Source: a virus. Taken from it: DNA of 64,000 bases. Positions within the stretch are counted from its first letter, which is position 1. Each line of letters begins with the position of its first letter. Of this stretch, positions 497 to 51,619 are shown piece by piece. A program made the position numbers and the translations under genes. The stretch spans positions 45,531 through 109,530 of IMG/VR virus record IMGVR_UViG_3300036861_001106. One strand, written 5' to 3'. The notes beneath the pieces were generated by a model. It made no database searches. It saw only the letters and a program-made list of their open reading frames with translations, and was not told the origin of the DNA.

Positions 497-1378
497 TTGG
501 CTGACCAGCTCAAGGTCTTTGGTGCGCTTGGCGGTGGCGTGGGTGACCTCTGGTGGGACTGGCTTCACGAACCCAGCTTTCGCAAGCTGGCCAGTCTCGT
601 GGAGCGCAATGGCGCGCGCGTGCGCATCTACTCCCAGTGTCACTGCGCTGGTGCTGCCACGGACCTGTTCCACGGTCACCCCCACGTCCATGAGGTCGTG
701 GAGGAGCCCTGGGCACCACCCACGCCCGAGCTGCAGCACCGGTGGAACACCCCCACTGCGGATGGCTTCATCCCGCTCTCGCGCAATGACCTGCTGCATG
801 ACGCGGGGGTGCGCCAACTTGACCTTCAACAACCGCAGATCCACCTGCTGGAGGGTGAGCGTCACCTGCTTGGTCAACTCCTGACGCGGCGCCCCTGCGT
901 CGTGGCCCAGCCCTACGCGGGGCTCTCTGACCGCGATGGCTTTGACGTGGCTGCCATCGCACGGCTGGCTGCAGCCCTGCAGCACCTCGCACCGGCGGCC
1001 AGCCTCCTGGTGATTGGCCGGAACCATGACCGCGGCCACAAGTACACACAGGAGCTGTGCCCAGCCGCACCAAACCTCACCGACCTGATTGATCAGCTCA
1101 ACATTCGGGTGACCTACCACCTCGTGGCCAATTGTGACGCCTTTGTCGGGGCGCACTCAAACCTCATCCGCGCTGCCTGGGACCACCGGCGTCGCACGGT
1201 GCTGGTGGTGCCCGAGCCCCTGATGACGCGCCACCTGCCGACGCTGGACTCAAAGTACACCTACGGGCTGCGACACCCAGAAAATAGGGTATTCACGTAT
1301 CCCTTCGACCATGGTCAGGAGCGACAATTTGACCAGCTCGACACCAGCGCCATCGCCGAGTTCCTCCTGCGGGGCTGA
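497..1378 (+). CDS. glycosyltransferase, GT9/heptosyltransferase-like (divergent)
   Basis: GGGVGD N-terminal motif, HPHVHEV, DLIDQL...CDAFVGAHS C-terminal GT-B motif; SD GAGGAGG. Confidence 0.7.
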   Translation: MADQLKVFGALGGGVGDLWWDWLHEPSFRKLASLVERNGARVRIYSQCHCAGAATDLFHGHPHVHEVVEEPWAPPTPELQHRWNTPTADGFIPLSRNDLLHDAGVRQLDLQQPQIHLLEGERHLLGQLLTRRPCVVAQPYAGLSDRDGFDVAAIARLAAALQHLAPAASLLVIGRNHDRGHKYTQELCPAAPNLTDLIDQLNIRVTYHLVANCDAFVGAHSNLIRAAWDHRRRTVLVVPEPLMTRHLPTLDSKYTYGLRHPENRVFTYPFDHGQERQFDQLDTSAIAEFLLRG

Positions 1379-2111
1379 GCAGCGCGAGCGCTGCCCCGCC
1401 TGTGCTCGGGACTTGCTGTACCCCCACCAGCGGGGACTTGGCTACTGCTACCACTGCTTCACCTACTGTGCTGCTGACCGACACACGACTGCGGTCTATG
1501 ACCGTGCCTACGTGGCAGAGCGCTATGATCGGTACCCAGCCATGCAGCAGATGAGCGAGCTGCGCCTGCGCGTGTTGTGGCACGTCCTGAGCCTGCACGA
1601 GTGTGCTGCCACCGGCGAGCAGCTTCGCCGGGGCCGGCTCCTGGACGTGGGGTACGGGAATGGCAGCTTCATTCGCGCCGCCGCTGCCGTCGGGTGGGCT
1701 GCCGTGGGGAATGACGTCAACCCCACCGAGTACCCCGGTGTGCGGCGCGTGGCGCTGCCGACAGACCCACTGCCGCCGGAGGAGCGCTACCGGGTCATCA
1801 CGTTCTTCGACTCCCTGGAGCACTTCGAGGACCTGGCCGCGCCACGAGCGGCAGCGCTCAGCACTGACTGGCTGATGATCAGCGTGCCCCGGGCTCCCCG
1901 GAGCTTCCCCAGTCGACCCTGGAAGCACTTTCGACCTGGGGAGCACCACCACTACTGGTGGAACCCCCGGTCGTTCGAGCTGATCTTCACGACGCCGGAG
2001 GTGCAGGCGCGGCTCGTCTACGCCGAGCACCCGGAGGACCACATTCGCGGGACACTGCCGGATGGAGTGCCGAACATCATGACCTGTGTCCTGAGGCTGG
2101 AGCGGCTGTGA
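1311..2111 (+). CDS. class I SAM-dependent methyltransferase with N-terminal Cys cluster (start uncertain)
   Basis: LLDVGYGNG motif I, ITFFDSLEH, HFRPGEH; CxxC...CxxC. Confidence 0.8.
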   Translation: MVRSDNLTSSTPAPSPSSSCGAEQRERCPACARDLLYPHQRGLGYCYHCFTYCAADRHTTAVYDRAYVAERYDRYPAMQQMSELRLRVLWHVLSLHECAATGEQLRRGRLLDVGYGNGSFIRAAAAVGWAAVGNDVNPTEYPGVRRVALPTDPLPPEERYRVITFFDSLEHFEDLAAPRAAALSTDWLMISVPRAPRSFPSRPWKHFRPGEHHHYWWNPRSFELIFTTPEVQARLVYAEHPEDHIRGTLPDGVPNIMTCVLRLERL

Positions 2112-2770
2112 GACACGACATCTTCCACGTCAGCGAGCGGTACCCAGTGCCCATCTCCAGCTTTGCAGTGCCCTCGGACATCACCATCTTTGGCGGCCGC
2201 TGGGCAGATGACACGTATTACGCGGATTACGCGGGCATTGCCAGGAAGTACCGGCCCGAGGAGATCCTGGAGATCGGGGTGCGCTTCGGTTACTCCGGCA
2301 TTGCGATGTGCCTGGGTGCCCTTGCAGGACGCCCAAATTACGATCCAGAGGTGTGGATCCTCGGCTACGATGGAATCGACGCTTGCTTCTTCAGTCACCC
2401 TGAAGATCCAGCAGTCTCAAGCAACGAGGTTGCCAGCGCGAACTTCGCAGCCCAGACGCCAAGCGTTGGTGTTGAGCTGTTTCGCCACGACACACGAGCG
2501 GGGCTGCCCGAGAAGGTGTGTCAGTACCTTGGAGTCTATGACCTTGTCAACGTTGACGGGGACCACTCCTACGAGGGGTGCTACCGCGACCTTGTCAACA
2601 TCTGGCCCCTGACTGCCCCTGGTGCGGTTGTGATCGTAGACGACACGGGGATGACCGACGTGAAGCGCGCGGTGGAGCAGTTCCGTGACGAGCACCTTGC
2701 GGAGTTGCAGGCGTTCCAGTGGCACGAGAATGAGCGTGGGCTGGCGCTCCTGCAGCGGAACGCAGGCTGA
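2108..2770 (+). CDS. class I SAM-dependent methyltransferase (Methyltransf_24-like)
   Basis: ILEIGVRFGYS, DLVNVDGDHSYEG, GAVVIVDD; GTGA overlap with upstream stop. Confidence 0.85.
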   Translation: MRHDIFHVSERYPVPISSFAVPSDITIFGGRWADDTYYADYAGIARKYRPEEILEIGVRFGYSGIAMCLGALAGRPNYDPEVWILGYDGIDACFFSHPEDPAVSSNEVASANFAAQTPSVGVELFRHDTRAGLPEKVCQYLGVYDLVNVDGDHSYEGCYRDLVNIWPLTAPGAVVIVDDTGMTDVKRAVEQFRDEHLAELQAFQWHENERGLALLQRNAG

Positions 2771-3300
2771 TGGGAAAGCGTGCCTACTTTGTGCTTGGCC
2801 CCGAGAACTCCGGCACGAGGTTCTTCCGGCGGTGCCTCTGCTCGGCAGGGTGCTACGGTGACCCGGACGCCGGTGAGAGCACCGATGACCTGTGCTTCCG
2901 CGACAAGCCAAGCAAGCTCGCACTTGCGCGCAGCGTGCCCAATGGGCTGCTGGTGCCGGACGTGCTTGCCATCGCGGGGCTGCTCAAGGCAGCGGGGTAC
3001 CGGGTGACGCCCATCCTCATCTCTCGGCGCAGCGACTTCGTGGTGGCAGGGCAGTTGAAGAACTACGAGGGGCGCACCTTCGAGGCGGCGCGGCAGACGA
3101 TCCTGGTGGCGGCCAAGCTGGCCTACGAGCTGGCGAGCTGGCTGAAGACGACCCTGGTCGTGGTGCCGTACGGGCTCTTCGTGACGGTGCCGGAGGTGCG
3201 GGGACACCTGTTTGCGCAGCTCGGGCTGCCGCCGCCAACCGTCGAGGTCGTCAACGCCAATGAGAAGTACGGGCTGGCAGGGCTGCTGCTGCCGTTCTGA
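2770..3300 (+). CDS. sulfotransferase-like/P-loop protein
   Basis: FVLGPENSGTRF resembles the PAPS-binding loop; VVPY..F....E....LFAQLGL C-terminal pattern. Confidence 0.5.
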   Translation: MGKRAYFVLGPENSGTRFFRRCLCSAGCYGDPDAGESTDDLCFRDKPSKLALARSVPNGLLVPDVLAIAGLLKAAGYRVTPILISRRSDFVVAGQLKNYEGRTFEAARQTILVAAKLAYELASWLKTTLVVVPYGLFVTVPEVRGHLFAQLGLPPPTVEVVNANEKYGLAGLLLPF

Positions 3301-3312
3301 GGGGAGGCTGAC

Positions 3313-3996
3313 TTGGTTGTCGAGGTGGAGTTCCTGACCGAGCCGGAGTGGTGGAAATTTGATCGTCGGCTGGTGGACCAGGTGGCCTTCCCGCTGGGTG
3401 ACCGGTACCCGCAGGAGATCATCGACCGGTACTTCGCGGTCTACGGTGGCCTAGTCCACAAGTTCCGCCCACGACACATGCTGGAGATTGGCGTGCGGTT
3501 CGGCTACACGGGCATCGTCTGCTGCGCGGCAGCGCTGGCGGCGGGCGTCGAGCGCTTCGAGTACCTGGGCATCGACGATGAGAGCTACCACGCCGGGTCG
3601 TGCCAGCAGGCCAACGACAACTTCCGCATCGTTGGGTTCCACGCGCGCTGTCGGGCGCTGCGGTGGAACTCCTTCGACGGCATCCCGGCCAAGCTGGGGA
3701 CCTTTGACCTCATCCACGTCGACGGCAACCACGACAAGCACGGGGTGCTCAATGACCTCATGAACGTGTGGCCCATCCTGCACCAGCGGGGCTTCGTGAT
3801 CCTCGATGACTACTACTTCCCCCAGATCAGGGAGGCCATCGACCAGTGGCTGGAGGAGTTCGTGGACAGTGACAACGTCGTGGCGGTGCAGTTCGTGGAG
3901 GATGAGCGTGGCCACGCCATCATTCGCAAGACAGGGCTGCGCAGGGAGGAGCTGCAGGACCAGGAGGGGTTGGTGATGGAGGCCCTCACCCTGTGA
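3313..3996 (+). CDS. class I SAM-dependent methyltransferase (Methyltransf_24-like), paralog of 2108..2770
   Basis: MLEIGVRFGYT, FDLIHVDGNH, GFVILDDY. Confidence 0.85.
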   Translation: MVVEVEFLTEPEWWKFDRRLVDQVAFPLGDRYPQEIIDRYFAVYGGLVHKFRPRHMLEIGVRFGYTGIVCCAAALAAGVERFEYLGIDDESYHAGSCQQANDNFRIVGFHARCRALRWNSFDGIPAKLGTFDLIHVDGNHDKHGVLNDLMNVWPILHQRGFVILDDYYFPQIREAIDQWLEEFVDSDNVVAVQFVEDERGHAIIRKTGLRREELQDQEGLVMEALTL

Positions 3997-6642: not shown

Positions 6643-6810
6643 ATGACACTCAACCTGCTGCAGACTGTCGACGCCCCGGAGAAGCCCATGGACCCGACGG
6701 CCCCGTGGTGGCCCAGGGAGGAGCCCCTGGCGCCGCCCACGGAGCCGGACGTGCCCTACGAGGCGCCGCCGGCGGACGATGAGCCGGACGACGATGAGGA
6801 TGACGACTAG
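6643..6810 (+). CDS. small acidic Pro-rich protein
   Basis: SD GGGAG; stop overlaps the stop of the convergent endonuclease gene. Confidence 0.45.
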   Translation: MTLNLLQTVDAPEKPMDPTAPWWPREEPLAPPTEPDVPYEAPPADDEPDDDEDDD

Positions 6811-7673
6811 CCGAAGCGGAGCTGGTCCCGGTACTTCGGGAGCGCCAGGTAGTGGTCCAGGACCCGCTGGCGCTTCCGGGGGAGGTAGATCGTGGCCCCC
6901 TCGTAGAGGAGGTTCACGATGGGGAGGCACTGAGCGTTGCCGTGAAACTGCAGCTTCCAGGCGGTCTTGCTGTTCTTGGCAGCGACGGTGTGACCACCAA
7001 TCTCTGGTAGTTCGATTTTCAGATACTCATGTGCAGCCTTGGCAAATGCTTCGGTGGACACGATCTTGATGGCGGCGTTCGGTGGGCATACCCCATCCTT
7101 GCGAGGGCGATTTCCAGCCTGGGATCGAAACATGCCGTCGCCGTCGAAGTAGCCGCGAAGATAATGCGGCTGCAAACGCCACGAGATGAAGTGCCAGGTA
7201 AGCTTTGTCGTCTTTCCTGGTATGATGCCAAATTTCTCAACATCTCGTAGAAGGTTGACCGAAACCAATGCGAGCCGGCTCGTGGGGTGTCCATTCGCAA
7301 GGTAATGGTACAGGGGATTTTCACACTCTGTGTCTCTCCTGAAAGACTCCAGGTGATCGGCATCTTTCGATGAAAGATTTACGATTACAGAGTTTCTCTG
7401 CGGACAGGCGTAGCCGTCTGCAGCAAGGAAACCAAGCCAGTAGGCTTGGCGTTCAGTCTCAATTGAAGAAAAGTAGCCTTCATTGAGGCTGAACTTTCGC
7501 TGGCAAGCTGATCGGTCGCGCCTAGTTATGCCTGCCATTTTCAGACAGGCGTAGATTGGCATCTCTGAGCAGCCAAACAAAGCAGCGAGTTCGTAGGCGC
7601 TCTTGCCCTCTCGGTAGAGACGGCAAACGACTTCCTTCTGACATTCTGTGAGATGGCCTCTGTAGTTGCTCAT
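6807..7673 (-). CDS. free-standing double-motif LAGLIDADG homing endonuclease with N-terminal HTH
   Basis: AYWLGFLAADG and HYLRGYFDGDG motifs; lower GC than flanks; own promoter. Confidence 0.9.
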   Translation of the reverse strand: MSNYRGHLTECQKEVVCRLYREGKSAYELAALFGCSEMPIYACLKMAGITRRDRSACQRKFSLNEGYFSSIETERQAYWLGFLAADGYACPQRNSVIVNLSSKDADHLESFRRDTECENPLYHYLANGHPTSRLALVSVNLLRDVEKFGIIPGKTTKLTWHFISWRLQPHYLRGYFDGDGMFRSQAGNRPRKDGVCPPNAAIKIVSTEAFAKAAHEYLKIELPEIGGHTVAAKNSKTAWKLQFHGNAQCLPIVNLLYEGATIYLPRKRQRVLDHYLALPKYRDQLRFG

Positions 7674-7678
7674 ATCGG

Positions 7679-7707
7679 AGTCTACAGATTTTGTCTCCAA
7701 ATGTCAA
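7679..7707 (-). promoter_or_regulatory. sigma70 promoter for a leaderless endonuclease mRNA
   Basis: TTGACA-17-TAGACT, ATG 5 nt downstream at 7673. Confidence 0.7.
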
Positions 7708-7765
7708 CTGGCTGCCACGACTTTTTGCGGGAGCGTGGCTAAAAAGTGAAAGGAGGTGCGGTCTC

Positions 7766-8739
7766 ATGGCCGCTACCTTTCTCGTGGAACCAGCGTAACG
7801 GAGCGAGCGGCACGGCGACAGACCTCGGATCAAGCGGAAATTTGGCTTCAAGAAGTTGGCCCCTCGCGTAGGAATGCGTGAGTGAAAACGGCGTGAATTG
7901 CGGGAAGCCTACAGCGAAGGCCATGGTAATCCGCAGCCAAGCTCGACAGGGCACTGGTTGTCGAGAAGGTTCAGAGACTAGAGGGTGAGTCCCAACAATA
8001 AGCCCTCCACGAGCGCGCCGCACCCAGATCGGGTGATGAGATAGTCCAAGCATCGGGGAAACCCGGTGAACTAGAACTTCAAGACCACGGACACGACGGG
8101 GATTGGAGATTACGCCGCGAATCCGGTCTCAGCCGGCTCGAACTCAATGGAAGTCGTACTGCGGATGCACTTCACAGGGTCTGCGGCCCCTCCAGCCTGA
8201 AAGGGCTGGTCGTGATGGCGTGAATTCGGGGAAGCCTACAGCGAAAGCCATGGTAATCCCGACCCAAGCTCTCCAGGAATGGTGAGAAGGGCTAGAGACC
8301 AGAGCAAGTAGACGAGACCCGTCGAACGCTCCACGAGCGCGCCACACCCCTCGGGGTGATGAGATGGTCCGACACTCCGTGGAAACGCGGAGAGCCTTGG
8401 ATAAAGAGCCAAGGTGTAACTGGTGCCTTCAACCGCATCGCCGACTTCCGATTCTGGCAATCGACGGCGTTCTCGCCGTCCACCGGCTTGCAGGTCTTCT
8501 GGTCCGGCACGCAGGTCATCTACCTGCAGCCGACCACCGGCACGTCGTCCATCGCCACGTCGTCCATCCCGACGACCGACCCTGGCACGGCGAACGTCAG
8601 CGTGGGTGGCTCCCTGACCGGATGCCTGACGACATCTGGTTTTACGGACCACATCTACCTTCAGCTCAGGACTGCGTCCAACGCTGCGGCAGGTGACACA
8701 TCGCTCGGAACTTTCACGGGCAGCTACACTGAGAACTAA
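7766..8739 (+). CDS. ~166-aa putative virion protein split by two group I introns (exons 7766-7847, 8075-8180, 8426-8739; exon 1 has a +1 frame discontinuity at 7778-7781)
   Basis: SD AGGAGGTG plus ATG; spliced product MAATFSWNQRNGASGTATDLGSSGNLA|NFKTTDTTGIGDYAANPVSAGSNSMEVVLRMHFTG|SFNRIADFRFWQ...YTEN stays in frame across both junctions. Confidence 0.75.
7848..8074 (+). ncRNA. group I intron 1 (227 nt, no ORF)
   Basis: 5' exon ends in U, intron ends in G; IGS GAAGTTGGCC (7852-7861) pairs over 10 nt with ligated junction GGCT|AACTTC including the U.G pair; P7 GACTA/TAGTC; core GAATTGCGGGAA...AATCCGCAGCCAAG. Confidence 0.9.
8181..8425 (+). ncRNA. group I intron 2 (245 nt, no ORF)
   Basis: P1 GGGU/GCCC; core GAATTCGGGGAA...AATCCCGACCCAAG; P7 GACCA/TGGTC; P9 hairpins; terminal G; removal restores the frame (T|CC = Ser). 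Confidence 0.85.
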
Positions 8740-49600: not shown

Positions 49601-50078
49601 CAGGGGCCACGGCACGCGCAGGTGCCCCTTGCAGTCCAGGGGGAACAGGCGCGCGTCGGCGAGCAACTCGTTGAGCCGCCGCAGCTCCCCCGTCAGGCAG
49701 TCCACCCGGTGGGTGCCCCCGGTGGGCCGGTGGCCAATCGTCCCCTTGCTGCGGTAGATCGTGATCACCTCCGCGCCCGGCGGGAGCAGCCGGCGGAGGG
49801 TCATCAGCGCCCGGTCCTGCGCCTCCGCCTCGCACGCCCCGTGCGTTCCTGTGAGCCTCACCTCAGACCTCCTTTTTCACCAGCTCAACCACGCGCCGCG
49901 CCTCACCACTGTGTGCGACCACGCGCTGGGCACTCTCGCGTGTCAAGGTGAACCCCGCACTCCGGTAGGTCCCCAGCGTGCGCCGGAATACTTGGTTGGC
50001 GAACCCCTCGTCGTCGTCCGACCAGGCGCTGATCAGCGTCCCCGTCTCCGCGTCCGTGGTCTGCACCTGCCACCTCAT
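46632..50078 (-). other. array of small hypothetical early genes
   Basis: tightly coupled short ORFs with SD and overlapping stop/start. Confidence 0.6.
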
Positions 50079-51361
50079 TTGTCCTCCCTCTGGAACTTGT
50101 ACTCGTACCCGTCGCACCTATGAACTTTCTTGCAGGCGCGGTGAGTGACTTCAATACTGCCACCTATTTTAAATGACCCAGAGGCCCTGACTGCCACGCG
50201 TCCAACGTGGGTCATTCTGACCTCCTTTCTTGTTACCGTCGCGCTCACGATGTCTCCCGTTTGAAATCCGAAGTGCAGCTTCTTTCGGGTTCGGTGCCTC
50301 GTGGGGAATCCATGCGCGTTCAGGCCGCACATCTGTCGCTTTCCCCACCCTGTGGCCTTGATGCTGAGGGGGCGAATTCCCCTGACTTGAAGCTGTTCCG
50401 GTGTGCTCGCGCCAACGCAGGCTGCATCAAGCCAGTGCTCCTTTGGCAGTCCCAGGCGCGTTCGGTTGAACTTCGTGCGCCCGCCAGTGCCAACTTCAAT
50501 CGGCAGCCCAGTTGCTGTCAGCCGTCGCCACAGGACCCACCGCGTTGCGTTGACTGCCGCCGCGTCCTTGAGTGGGGCCTTCAGCCCGGCGAGGATCTTC
50601 TTCAGGACCTCAGGGTGTCTGGCCAGGAACTCCTCCACTGGCCGGTTGCTCTTGGCCTGGTTGCACGGCCCACACGCGAGGGTGAGGTTCGAGACGCGGT
50701 GCGTGCCGCCTCCATCGCGCGGGCGCACGTGTTCCACCTGGAGCGGGACGTGTTCCGCATTACAGTAGGCGCACCTCCGGCCCCACTTCTCCAGCAAGTA
50801 CTCCCGCACCTCATAGCCAGCCAGCTCACCCTGCTGGTACTCGACTCCTGTCACCTCCGGGTTCTGCAACGCCTGGGTGTCGAAGCGCACCGTCTCCACG
50901 CTTAGTGCGCCAACGGGCGCGAACCGGCACAGGCGGCCCACCCACGTCTCCACGTTGGCCACCCGGCTCTCCAGCGACGGCGGCAGCCAACCCTCCCGTC
51001 GGGTGCGGTTGTCAAAGCGTGGCTTGCGGTAGCGCGTCTTCCGGTTTCGGCGGTTGCGTCGAACTGCGCTTCGTTTCTTCATGCACTTCTCAATGAGCAT
51101 GCCATGGTGCTCGACCTCTGCGGCGAAGATGACGGTCGCTGCCACGTCGTCCACAAGGGCAACCCCTGTGACCTTGCTGCCTGGGTCCAACTTCAGGCGC
51201 AGGGGGCGTGGCGTGGCGTCCACCACCTGTCGCCGCAGGATGATGGTGAAGGGAAAGCGCCGCAGCACGGCCGCTCTTCCCGTGGCCAGCAACTTCCGCG
51301 CCACTGCGGCGTGGCAGGGCGTCAGCGGCTGGCGATCCGCGTTCAGGACAAAAACTCGCAT
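50075..51361 (-). CDS. iscB: IscB RNA-guided endonuclease (428 aa; PLMP, split RuvC, bridge helix, HNH)
   Basis: MRVFVL...PLTPCH, LKLDPGSK (RuvC-I), RRNRRNRKTRYRKPRFDNR, VETVRFD (RuvC-II), CAYC...EHVRP...SNLTLAC..CN..K (HNH), HWLDAACVG (RuvC-III). Confidence 0.95.
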   Translation of the reverse strand: MRVFVLNADRQPLTPCHAAVARKLLATGRAAVLRRFPFTIILRRQVVDATPRPLRLKLDPGSKVTGVALVDDVAATVIFAAEVEHHGMLIEKCMKKRSAVRRNRRNRKTRYRKPRFDNRTRREGWLPPSLESRVANVETWVGRLCRFAPVGALSVETVRFDTQALQNPEVTGVEYQQGELAGYEVREYLLEKWGRRCAYCNAEHVPLQVEHVRPRDGGGTHRVSNLTLACGPCNQAKSNRPVEEFLARHPEVLKKILAGLKAPLKDAAAVNATRWVLWRRLTATGLPIEVGTGGRTKFNRTRLGLPKEHWLDAACVGASTPEQLQVRGIRPLSIKATGWGKRQMCGLNAHGFPTRHRTRKKLHFGFQTGDIVSATVTRKEVRMTHVGRVAVRASGSFKIGGSIEVTHRACKKVHRCDGYEYKFQREDK

Positions 51362-51619
51362 CGCTGCGAACTCCTCTCGCGAGGGTAAGGTTTGCCTCGA
51401 CGATGTTAGCAGGCGGCCGTCTCCCGGACTCACTGTGGCACCCACGTGAACCTCGCTTAAAGCCCGGGTTACAGGGCGGCAGGCTGGCAACGCACCCGCC
51501 GGTGTGAACTTGGGCGCTCTCTGCTAACGTAGCCCGTTGACCGGCTGACGCCGGTCCTGGCTGGGTCTGGTCTGCCAGGGAGCGAGTTAACCTCGCTCCC
51601 ATGCGCGCGTGGGGCAGAC
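51362..51619 (-). ncRNA. omegaRNA scaffold
   Basis: directly upstream of iscB; 5' stem GTCTGCC/GGCAGAC followed by CAGAC, CTACGTT, GGGTGC..GCCAGCC and AACATCGTCGAGGCAAACCTTACC elements typical of omegaRNAs. Confidence 0.85.

Follow-up and report, generated by a model that had tools for sequence, protein, structure and literature searches.

Two compact group I introns without open reading frames probably split a structural-block gene of an uncultured phage

INTRODUCTION

Group I introns of phages lie mostly in genes of DNA metabolism (PMC11878797), with phage Twort and the Cluster J mycobacteriophages as exceptions. Here we describe positions 7766-8739 of a 64,000-nucleotide (nt) window, which is the whole stretch of DNA that we analysed and the right-hand 64 kb of a complete 109,530-bp IMG/VR virus record (IMGVR_UViG_3300036861_001106) with direct terminal repeats. 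We consider it likely (probability about 0.85) that these positions hold a single gene of the structural block that is split by two group I introns of a compact family widespread among GC-rich uncultured phages; neither intron contains an open reading frame (ORF). The arrangement is of a known kind, with Twort and Cluster J as precedents, and is neither a new element nor a new mechanism. What sets it apart is how small the introns are, the GC-rich uncultured lineage in which they occur and how many different sites relatives use within one 500-nt gene.

The orf142 gene of Twort (Landthaler and Shub 1999) encodes a protein of 142 amino acids (aa), later recognized as the tail tube protein, and is interrupted by three ORF-less introns of subgroup IA2. 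Two of these introns are highly similar and flank a 23-nt exon, and skipping of this exon has been demonstrated (PMC10136302, PMC11878797). The present locus is likewise a small structural-block gene with several ORF-less group I introns and a short exon between them: two related introns lie in one 166-aa gene, whose product may, by gene order, belong to the virion. Unlike orf142, it has two introns instead of three, and its internal exon is 106 nt long, so that skipping would shift the reading frame. It also belongs to a GC-rich uncultured phage, the proteins whose genes host the introns are unrelated by sequence, and splicing is predicted here from the sequence.

In the Cluster J mycobacteriophages, with genomes of 106-117 kb, spliced introns occur in the capsid gene of LittleE and in a minor tail gene of BAKA and Optimus; one of the introns is ORF-less and 265 bp long, and related intron sequence is present in two genes (PMC3706429). 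High GC content, a LAGLIDADG gene on the opposite strand and glycosyltransferases among the structural genes are shared with our locus (PMC3706429). In Cluster J, however, the related introns are spread over different genes and different phages, and an intron contains the LAGLIDADG gene; here a single gene holds both introns, and the endonuclease gene stands on its own.

A free-standing endonuclease gene beside endonuclease-less introns, within about 2 kb of them, is also known from T4 mobE and the nrdB intron and from collaborative homing (PMC2790892). Homing of the T4 type involves HNH or GIY-YIG enzymes and genes of nucleotide metabolism, and both cleavage and inheritance have been demonstrated (PMC2790892); here the enzyme is of the LAGLIDADG type, and an orthologous gene stands beside an intronless allele. 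Finally, group I introns split single genes of the Bastillevirinae two or three times, with small exons left in between and with variable occupancy (PMC11878797). Our locus has the same multi-intron gene, small internal exon and varying occupancy among relatives. The Bastillevirinae introns average about 800 nt, often carry endonuclease genes and interrupt DNA polymerase, terminase and nucleotide-metabolism genes (PMC11878797), in contrast to the minimal 227-245-nt introns in a small structural-block gene described below.

RESULTS

Two group I introns, each with its own guide sequence

The split gene and its signals are laid out as follows.

7750-7758, plus strand: Shine-Dalgarno sequence AAGGAGGUG, read from the sequence, 7 nt before the ATG at 7766
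7766-7847, plus strand: exon 1, 82 nt, placed by tblastn with the homologues P0008 and P0011; contains a surplus base at about 7778-7782
7848-8074, plus strand: group I intron 1, 227 nt, no ORF, placed by Rfam model RF00028, U7847, terminal G8074 and the homologue junction
8075-8180, plus strand: exon 2, 106 nt, 72% identity to P0008 residues 27-62
8181-8425, plus strand: group I intron 2, 245 nt, no ORF, placed by RF00028, family alignment, covariation, U8180 and terminal G8425
8426-8739, plus strand: exon 3, 314 nt including the TAA stop codon, 77% identity to P0008 residues 60-165

Intron 1 matches RF00028 (group I intron; gathering cut-off 50 bits) at 7839-8068 with 79.4 bits. Intron 2 matches it at 8171-8392 with 46.7 bits (E = 1.8e-10 in a local search and 3.9e-12 in a search of the whole genome), and the whole-genome Rfam search returned no RF00028 match beyond these two. 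Both introns are preceded by a U (U7847, U8180) and end in a G (G8074, G8425), and no ORF of any size is present inside either. An earlier note, made by inspection of the sequence, had proposed two ORF-less group I introns at exactly these boundaries around a 106-nt exon and had named an Infernal search as a check. That search was positive for intron 1 and fell just short of the cut-off for intron 2, and the terminal nucleotides and the junctions of homologues agree with the boundaries.

Each intron is predicted to fold on the transcript, with its own guide sequence paired to the last four bases of the preceding exon (GGCU and GGGU, respectively), and would then be excised by two guanosine-initiated transesterifications, leaving a message for a beta-sandwich protein of about 166 aa. 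The guide of intron 1 (7852-7861, GAAGUUGGCC) is the reverse complement of the ligated exons GGCU-AACUUC (hyphen, splice junction) except for a G.U wobble at the cleavage site, which gives a 4-bp P1 (GGCU/GGCC; U7847.G7858) beside a 6-bp P10 (GAAGUU with AACUUC). The guide of intron 2, GCCC at 8186-8189, forms with GGGU a 4-bp P1 (U8180.G8186) closed by a loop of five bases, and an additional hairpin, CCUUGG-AUAAAGAG-CCAAGG, follows P9 at the 3' end. Thus each site has its own fitted guide, as had been proposed. A 5' splice site after U7848, the P1 register drawn by the Rfam alignment one base over, was rejected because it brings in a stop codon or loses the invariant Asn27, and because it destroys the 10-nt guide match.

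The two introns keep their core helices with different bases. In intron 1, P7 is GACUA/UAGUC and P4 is UGCGGG/UCCGCA; the corresponding helices of intron 2 are GACCA/UGGUC and UCGGGG/UCCCGA. These compensatory changes, and the shared core strings that the earlier note quoted along with them, are present in our alignments.

Intronless homologues align across both junctions

A search with the translation of exon 3 returned 93 proteins at E <= 0.01, most of them 164-170 aa long. The intronless homologues of 165-167 aa align without gaps, residue for residue, over both predicted junctions, GSSGNLA-NFK and HFTG-SFNR. Where homologues read ...GSSGNLxNFKxxDT... and ...HFTG(S/T)FNR..., the window reads GSSGNLA-NFKTTDT and MHFTG-SFNR with equal spacing, and exon 2 encodes NFKTTDTTGIGDYAANPVSAGSNSMEVVLRMHFTG plus the first base of a Ser codon. 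Overall, the exons are 67-77% identical to homologues. Homology across the junctions, which the earlier note had also put forward as a check, therefore comes out in favour of the split gene.

The database product for this gene is P0001, a 126-aa protein whose first 23 residues are translated intron 2. Since P0001 starts inside intron 2, the gene was missed by annotation, as had been said of the ORF track. The 126-aa artefact is a concrete case of gene callers misannotating intron-split phage genes. Several of the proteins P0002, P0003, P0010, P0025 and P0034 have truncated N-termini, which is suggestive of further introns. No relative of the 166-aa protein was found in a search of genome contigs, and viral contigs scanned with exon 3 alone gave nothing closer than 63%.

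Both introns belong to a compact family held to a common structure

The family pattern AGAGACYAG...CCACGAGCGCGCC can also be seen in 13 more viral contigs, each of them scoring above the Rfam cut-off. For 12 family members, RNAalifold found compensatory changes in 36 of 54 pairs of a structure that comprises P2, P3, P4, P5, P6/P6a, an additional hairpin between P7 and P3', P8 and P9. The conserved core helices P3-P9, with the P3/P7 pseudoknot, are supported by this covariation and by the pair changes in P7 given above. The hairpin between P7 and P3' resembles, we infer, P7.1 of subgroup IA. With the tape-measure genes and one more gene in which the family occurs, the 166-aa gene extends phage group I introns beyond the genes of DNA metabolism.

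The tape-measure genes interrupted by the same intron family are in contigs L055, L057 and L061. In nine other contigs (L050-L054, L058-L060 and L062), the intron follows an endonuclease-like ORF (YNGV.FRSSYEVRFA...LPDF) in eight cases and lies ahead of another gene; in the ninth, L051, the ORF upstream of the intron is short and unlike that of the other eight. The same core pattern is also present in four contigs of metagenome-assembled genomes of soil bacteria (L067-L070: Solirubrobacterales, Actinomycetes, Acidobacteriota and Vicinamibacterales), which is a possible hint at host range or at prophages.

A frame break in exon 1

From the ATG at 7766, the spliced exons add up to 82 + 106 + 314 = 502 nt, one base more than 167 codons. 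The frame of this ATG encodes MAATF, the conserved N-terminus of the family, then LVEPA and a stop, giving only the 10 codons MAATFLVEPA; the homologous FSWNQRNG... (FSWNQRNGASGTATDLGSSGNLA) is in the +1 frame from 7779. In tblastn with P0008 and P0011, residues 1-5 align in one frame (7766-7780) and residues 5-27 in another (7779-7850), and the four bases CUCG occupy the place of one homologue codon. The break, at 7778-7782, is not located at a splice junction. It had been overlooked in the earlier note, whose prediction of a continuous protein of about 166 aa after splicing is correct for the frame across both junctions but not for continuity from the ATG. Most likely, the surplus base is an error of assembly or consensus calling, or else a very recent change, because the ATG, although out of frame, is intact, as are its strong ribosome-binding site and all five conserved MAATF codons.

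Two other explanations of the break were weighed. If it is real, the gene may be dead in this genome and the introns relics in a pseudogene, as the spliced length of 502 nt and the stop after 10 codons would lead one to expect. We regard this as improbable: all three exons are otherwise open and as similar to homologues as given above, the intact ribosome-binding site, ATG and MAATF codons date any break to the very recent past, the genome record is complete and has terminal repeats, and the 166-aa gene is conserved throughout the phage group. In addition, an in-frame GTG at 7746 could still yield a 173-aa product that keeps the FSWNQRNG strand; the Shine-Dalgarno-like element nearest to this codon is 12 nt away. 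Alternatively, the break might be decoded by programmed +1 frameshifting at UUU-C (7778-7781), where tRNA-Phe could re-pair from UUU to UUC and the product, MAATF-S-WNQRNG..., would equal the homologues exactly in length. This is the least credible of the explanations that we considered, as the A site holds no slow or stop codon and no stimulatory Shine-Dalgarno-like element lies at the distance used in RF2-type frameshifting, the sole such element being 20 nt upstream. An error of assembly or a very recent change in an otherwise intact split gene is thus the reading that we retain.

The protein product and its genomic context

A confident AlphaFold model of the close homologue P0008, with a predicted local distance difference test score (pLDDT) of 88.8, is a beta-sandwich. 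Foldseek searches against the Protein Data Bank (PDB) and BFVD returned nothing at E <= 0.001, the ESM Atlas gave matches to unnamed viral clusters only, and tblastn against 50,697 isolate phage records found no match to the 166-aa protein. The large proteins encoded nearby in this genome likewise match no Pfam or PHROG family.

In this genome, a portal gene, a protease-capsid fusion and a methyltransferase-rich cassette lie upstream of the 166-aa gene on the same strand, and in relatives the order is major head protein, glycosyltransferase, 166-aa gene, a gene of about 200 aa and tail fibre. The earlier note's description of a virion gene is therefore a reasonable inference from its position between capsid and tail-fibre genes in relatives. 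The upstream glycosyltransferase and methyltransferase genes suggest that the Ser/Thr-rich 166-aa protein is modified, and from gene position we lean towards a Ser/Thr-rich, possibly glycosylated protein of the virion surface. That splicing gates late expression, as had also been proposed, is speculation.

The protease-capsid fusion of this genome appears to be a 1164-aa ORF at L064:13152-16643 (genome 33152-36643), which matches a head maturation protease over residues 391-650 and a major head protein over residues 918-1140. In distant relatives, a glycosyltransferase gene (phrog_7162) is close upstream of the 166-aa gene (L033:2878-3945, L040:1685-2809 and L036:1227-2933). The methyltransferase-rich cassette, at 1311-3996 of the window, is in the corresponding upstream place.

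Several results weigh against a functional split gene for a virion protein. Intron 2 scores 3.3 bits below the Rfam gathering cut-off, and a P10 helix was looked for in this intron and not found. The spliced message as sequenced is out of frame from the conserved start, so the gene could be inactive here, and excision of both introns is itself a prediction. As for the product, the 166-aa protein has no sequence match in Pfam, PHROG or the PDB, and the best VIA-align hit, to chaperone-usher pilins of the FimA type, has a Z of 6.8, which is within the noise range stated for the tool. With neither a family nor a significant fold match, the virion role depends on gene order.

The gene is an intron hotspot in related phages

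We compared 41 IMG/VR loci that encode relatives of the 166-aa protein. Most are uninterrupted, but those that are not differ in where and by what they are interrupted, and the gene is an intron hotspot with at least six occupied positions among uncultured phages. The locus L044 (L044:1-465), whose exon 3 is 80% identical to that of the window at the protein level, has an intron at site 1 and a second intron after a 60-nt exon, at about codon 46, while its site 2 is empty. The 5' boundary of this second intron is ambiguous, as it requires either a C at position -1 or a two-residue insertion.

Insertions are also found in the AT-rich relatives L035, L036 and L040. That in L036 (3076-3996) is a group I intron (91.5 bits) with an HNH endonuclease gene, and L035 (3243-3996) has a homologous HNH-bearing insertion; both interrupt codon 28 behind its first base, 4 nt downstream of site 1. 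Another HNH-bearing insertion, in L040 (3327-3998), interrupts codon 63 behind its second base, 4 nt downstream of site 2. Read by eye, it has the motif AGACUA...UAGUC, a U at -1 and a terminal G; no intron scored in an Rfam search of this insertion, which makes its assignment to group I weaker. In L022 (4463-4937 and about 5100 onward), Rfam places two adjoining group I introns (61.5 and 70 bits) immediately behind codon 153, and a LAGLIDADG ORF comes after them.

The occupied positions are at or near invariant or nearly invariant residues: N27-F28-K29, P43-G47, G61/F63/N64 and A150-S154. Both introns of the window fall in codon clusters that rank among the most conserved of the gene, N27-F28-K29 and G61/F63-N64. 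The occupied positions agree with the known preference of introns and homing endonucleases for conserved codons (PMC2790892). Since the same gene carries other introns at or near these and other conserved positions in other phages, it is a recurrent intron target.

The two introns are diverged relatives of each other

The earlier note described the cores of the two introns as near-identical and proposed that one intron had been retargeted locally to a second site. The shared strings exist, but the degree of likeness was overstated. Core identity between introns 1 and 2 is about 68%, and the strings are largely family-wide: part of them is invariant in 12 of 12 aligned introns, and a stretch in P5 is specific to introns 1 and 2. 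Between the two, 11 pairs are changed on both sides and 2 on one side, which indicates that the two diverged long ago and that selection has since kept both to the ribozyme structure. In a tree, intron 2 groups weakly with the second intron of L044 (87/83 support), which is at a different site, and intron 1 is unresolved. When introns 1 and 2 are forced into a clade, the approximately unbiased test (p-AU 0.74) neither supports nor rejects it. Introns 1 and 2 are diverged members of the family, and neither is a recent copy of the other. The data give no support to a recent local duplication, though an ancient one is conceivable.

A free-standing LAGLIDADG endonuclease gene adjoins the split gene

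Upstream of the split gene, and divergent from it, is the following feature.

6807-7700, minus strand: free-standing LAGLIDADG endonuclease gene, identified by PF14528 and phrog_4645

The ORF has two LAGLIDADG motifs and an N-terminal helix-turn-helix region, and its likely start is an ATG at 7673, which gives 288 aa. It matches PF14528 with 28.5 bits and phrog_4645 ("endonuclease") with E = 6.7e-45 over profile positions 36-302 of 308. The GC content of the gene dips to 0.53, compared with about 0.65 in the flanks. A sigma-70-like sequence, TTGACA-17-TAGACT, a match to the consensus only, runs from 7707 to 7679 and ends 6 nt before this ATG; transcription from this predicted promoter would start at about the ATG and give a leaderless transcript.

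The introns start 148 and 481 nt from the 5' end of the endonuclease gene, within the co-conversion distance of about 2 kb. In L002, an orthologous LAGLIDADG gene (L002:2834-3958, minus strand; 29% identity, with the same C-terminal PKYRDQLRFG) is in the same position, and the 166-aa gene beside it (L002:4001-4498) is an intronless allele. This is the one informative comparison, and it gives no co-inheritance of endonuclease and introns among related genomes. Because the L002 endonuclease gene stands beside an intronless allele, the endonuclease occupies this intergenic site independently of the introns.

How the introns may have spread

Two proposals address how the introns came to their sites. 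In the one put forward by the earlier note, an intron was copied locally to a site about 330 nt away and its guide adapted, for example through reverse splicing. Both introns are of one family and only 106 nt apart, their P4-P5 stretch is close to 85% identical, CUUCAA occurs within the first eight bases of both 3' exons, and a clade of the two is not rejected; moreover, the relative of intron 2 at a different site in L044 implies that this lineage changed site at some time. Nevertheless, we think local copying unlikely and did not uphold it. The two cores are less similar to each other than either is to the intron of L051 (74-75%), which is in another gene of another phage, and the 11 compensatory pair changes point to an old divergence. 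In its 3' half, intron 1 is 79% identical to the site-1 intron of L044, with which it shares an inserted hairpin, and only 66% identical to intron 2; the GGAUAAAGAGCC hairpin is carried only by intron 2 and the L044 introns. A broader form of the idea, that minimal endonuclease-free introns repeatedly hop between nearby conserved sites by a change of guide through reverse splicing and not by endonuclease-driven homing, is equally unlikely. If true, guide switching would explain the related introns at site 1, at about codon 46 and at site 2 in phages with 80%-identical proteins, and population variants would show ribozyme retargeting in action.

The other proposal, trans or collaborative homing, likewise concerns the spread of the introns and is compatible with two diverged introns in one split gene. 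Here, the LAGLIDADG enzyme would cut alleles that lack either the endonuclease gene or the introns during co-infection, and repair would co-convert its own gene along with both introns, which are 150-750 bp away. That the endonuclease may co-convert the introns fits with its intact double motif and near-full profile coverage, with a gene within 150 bp of exon 1 whose GC dip suggests foreign origin, and with the precedent of T4 mobE and the nrdB intron, in which co-conversion tracts reach about 2 kb (PMC2790892). Also in its favour, the closest outside homologue of the endonuclease, P0098 (50% identity), is on a 4,587-nt NCBI contig, and P0002, which is 86% identical to the split gene product and has a truncated N-terminus, is encoded on a contig of equal length, possibly the same one. 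Against it, the L002 ortholog persists beside an intronless allele, and the introns of L044, L035, L036 and L040 occur with other endonucleases or with none visible. Weighing both sides, we hold trans homing to be possible though doubtful, and more plausible than local copying. With endonuclease-bearing and endonuclease-free introns among relatives and a free-standing endonuclease gene adjoining, the locus is a convenient natural system for intron site choice and its change.

A further element lies elsewhere in the window. At 51385-51619 on the minus strand, a HEARO RNA (RF02033, 91.4 bits; cut-off 83) adjoins a 471-aa ORF at 50075-51490 on the same strand, and together they look like an element of the IscB/IS200-605 type in the phage genome.

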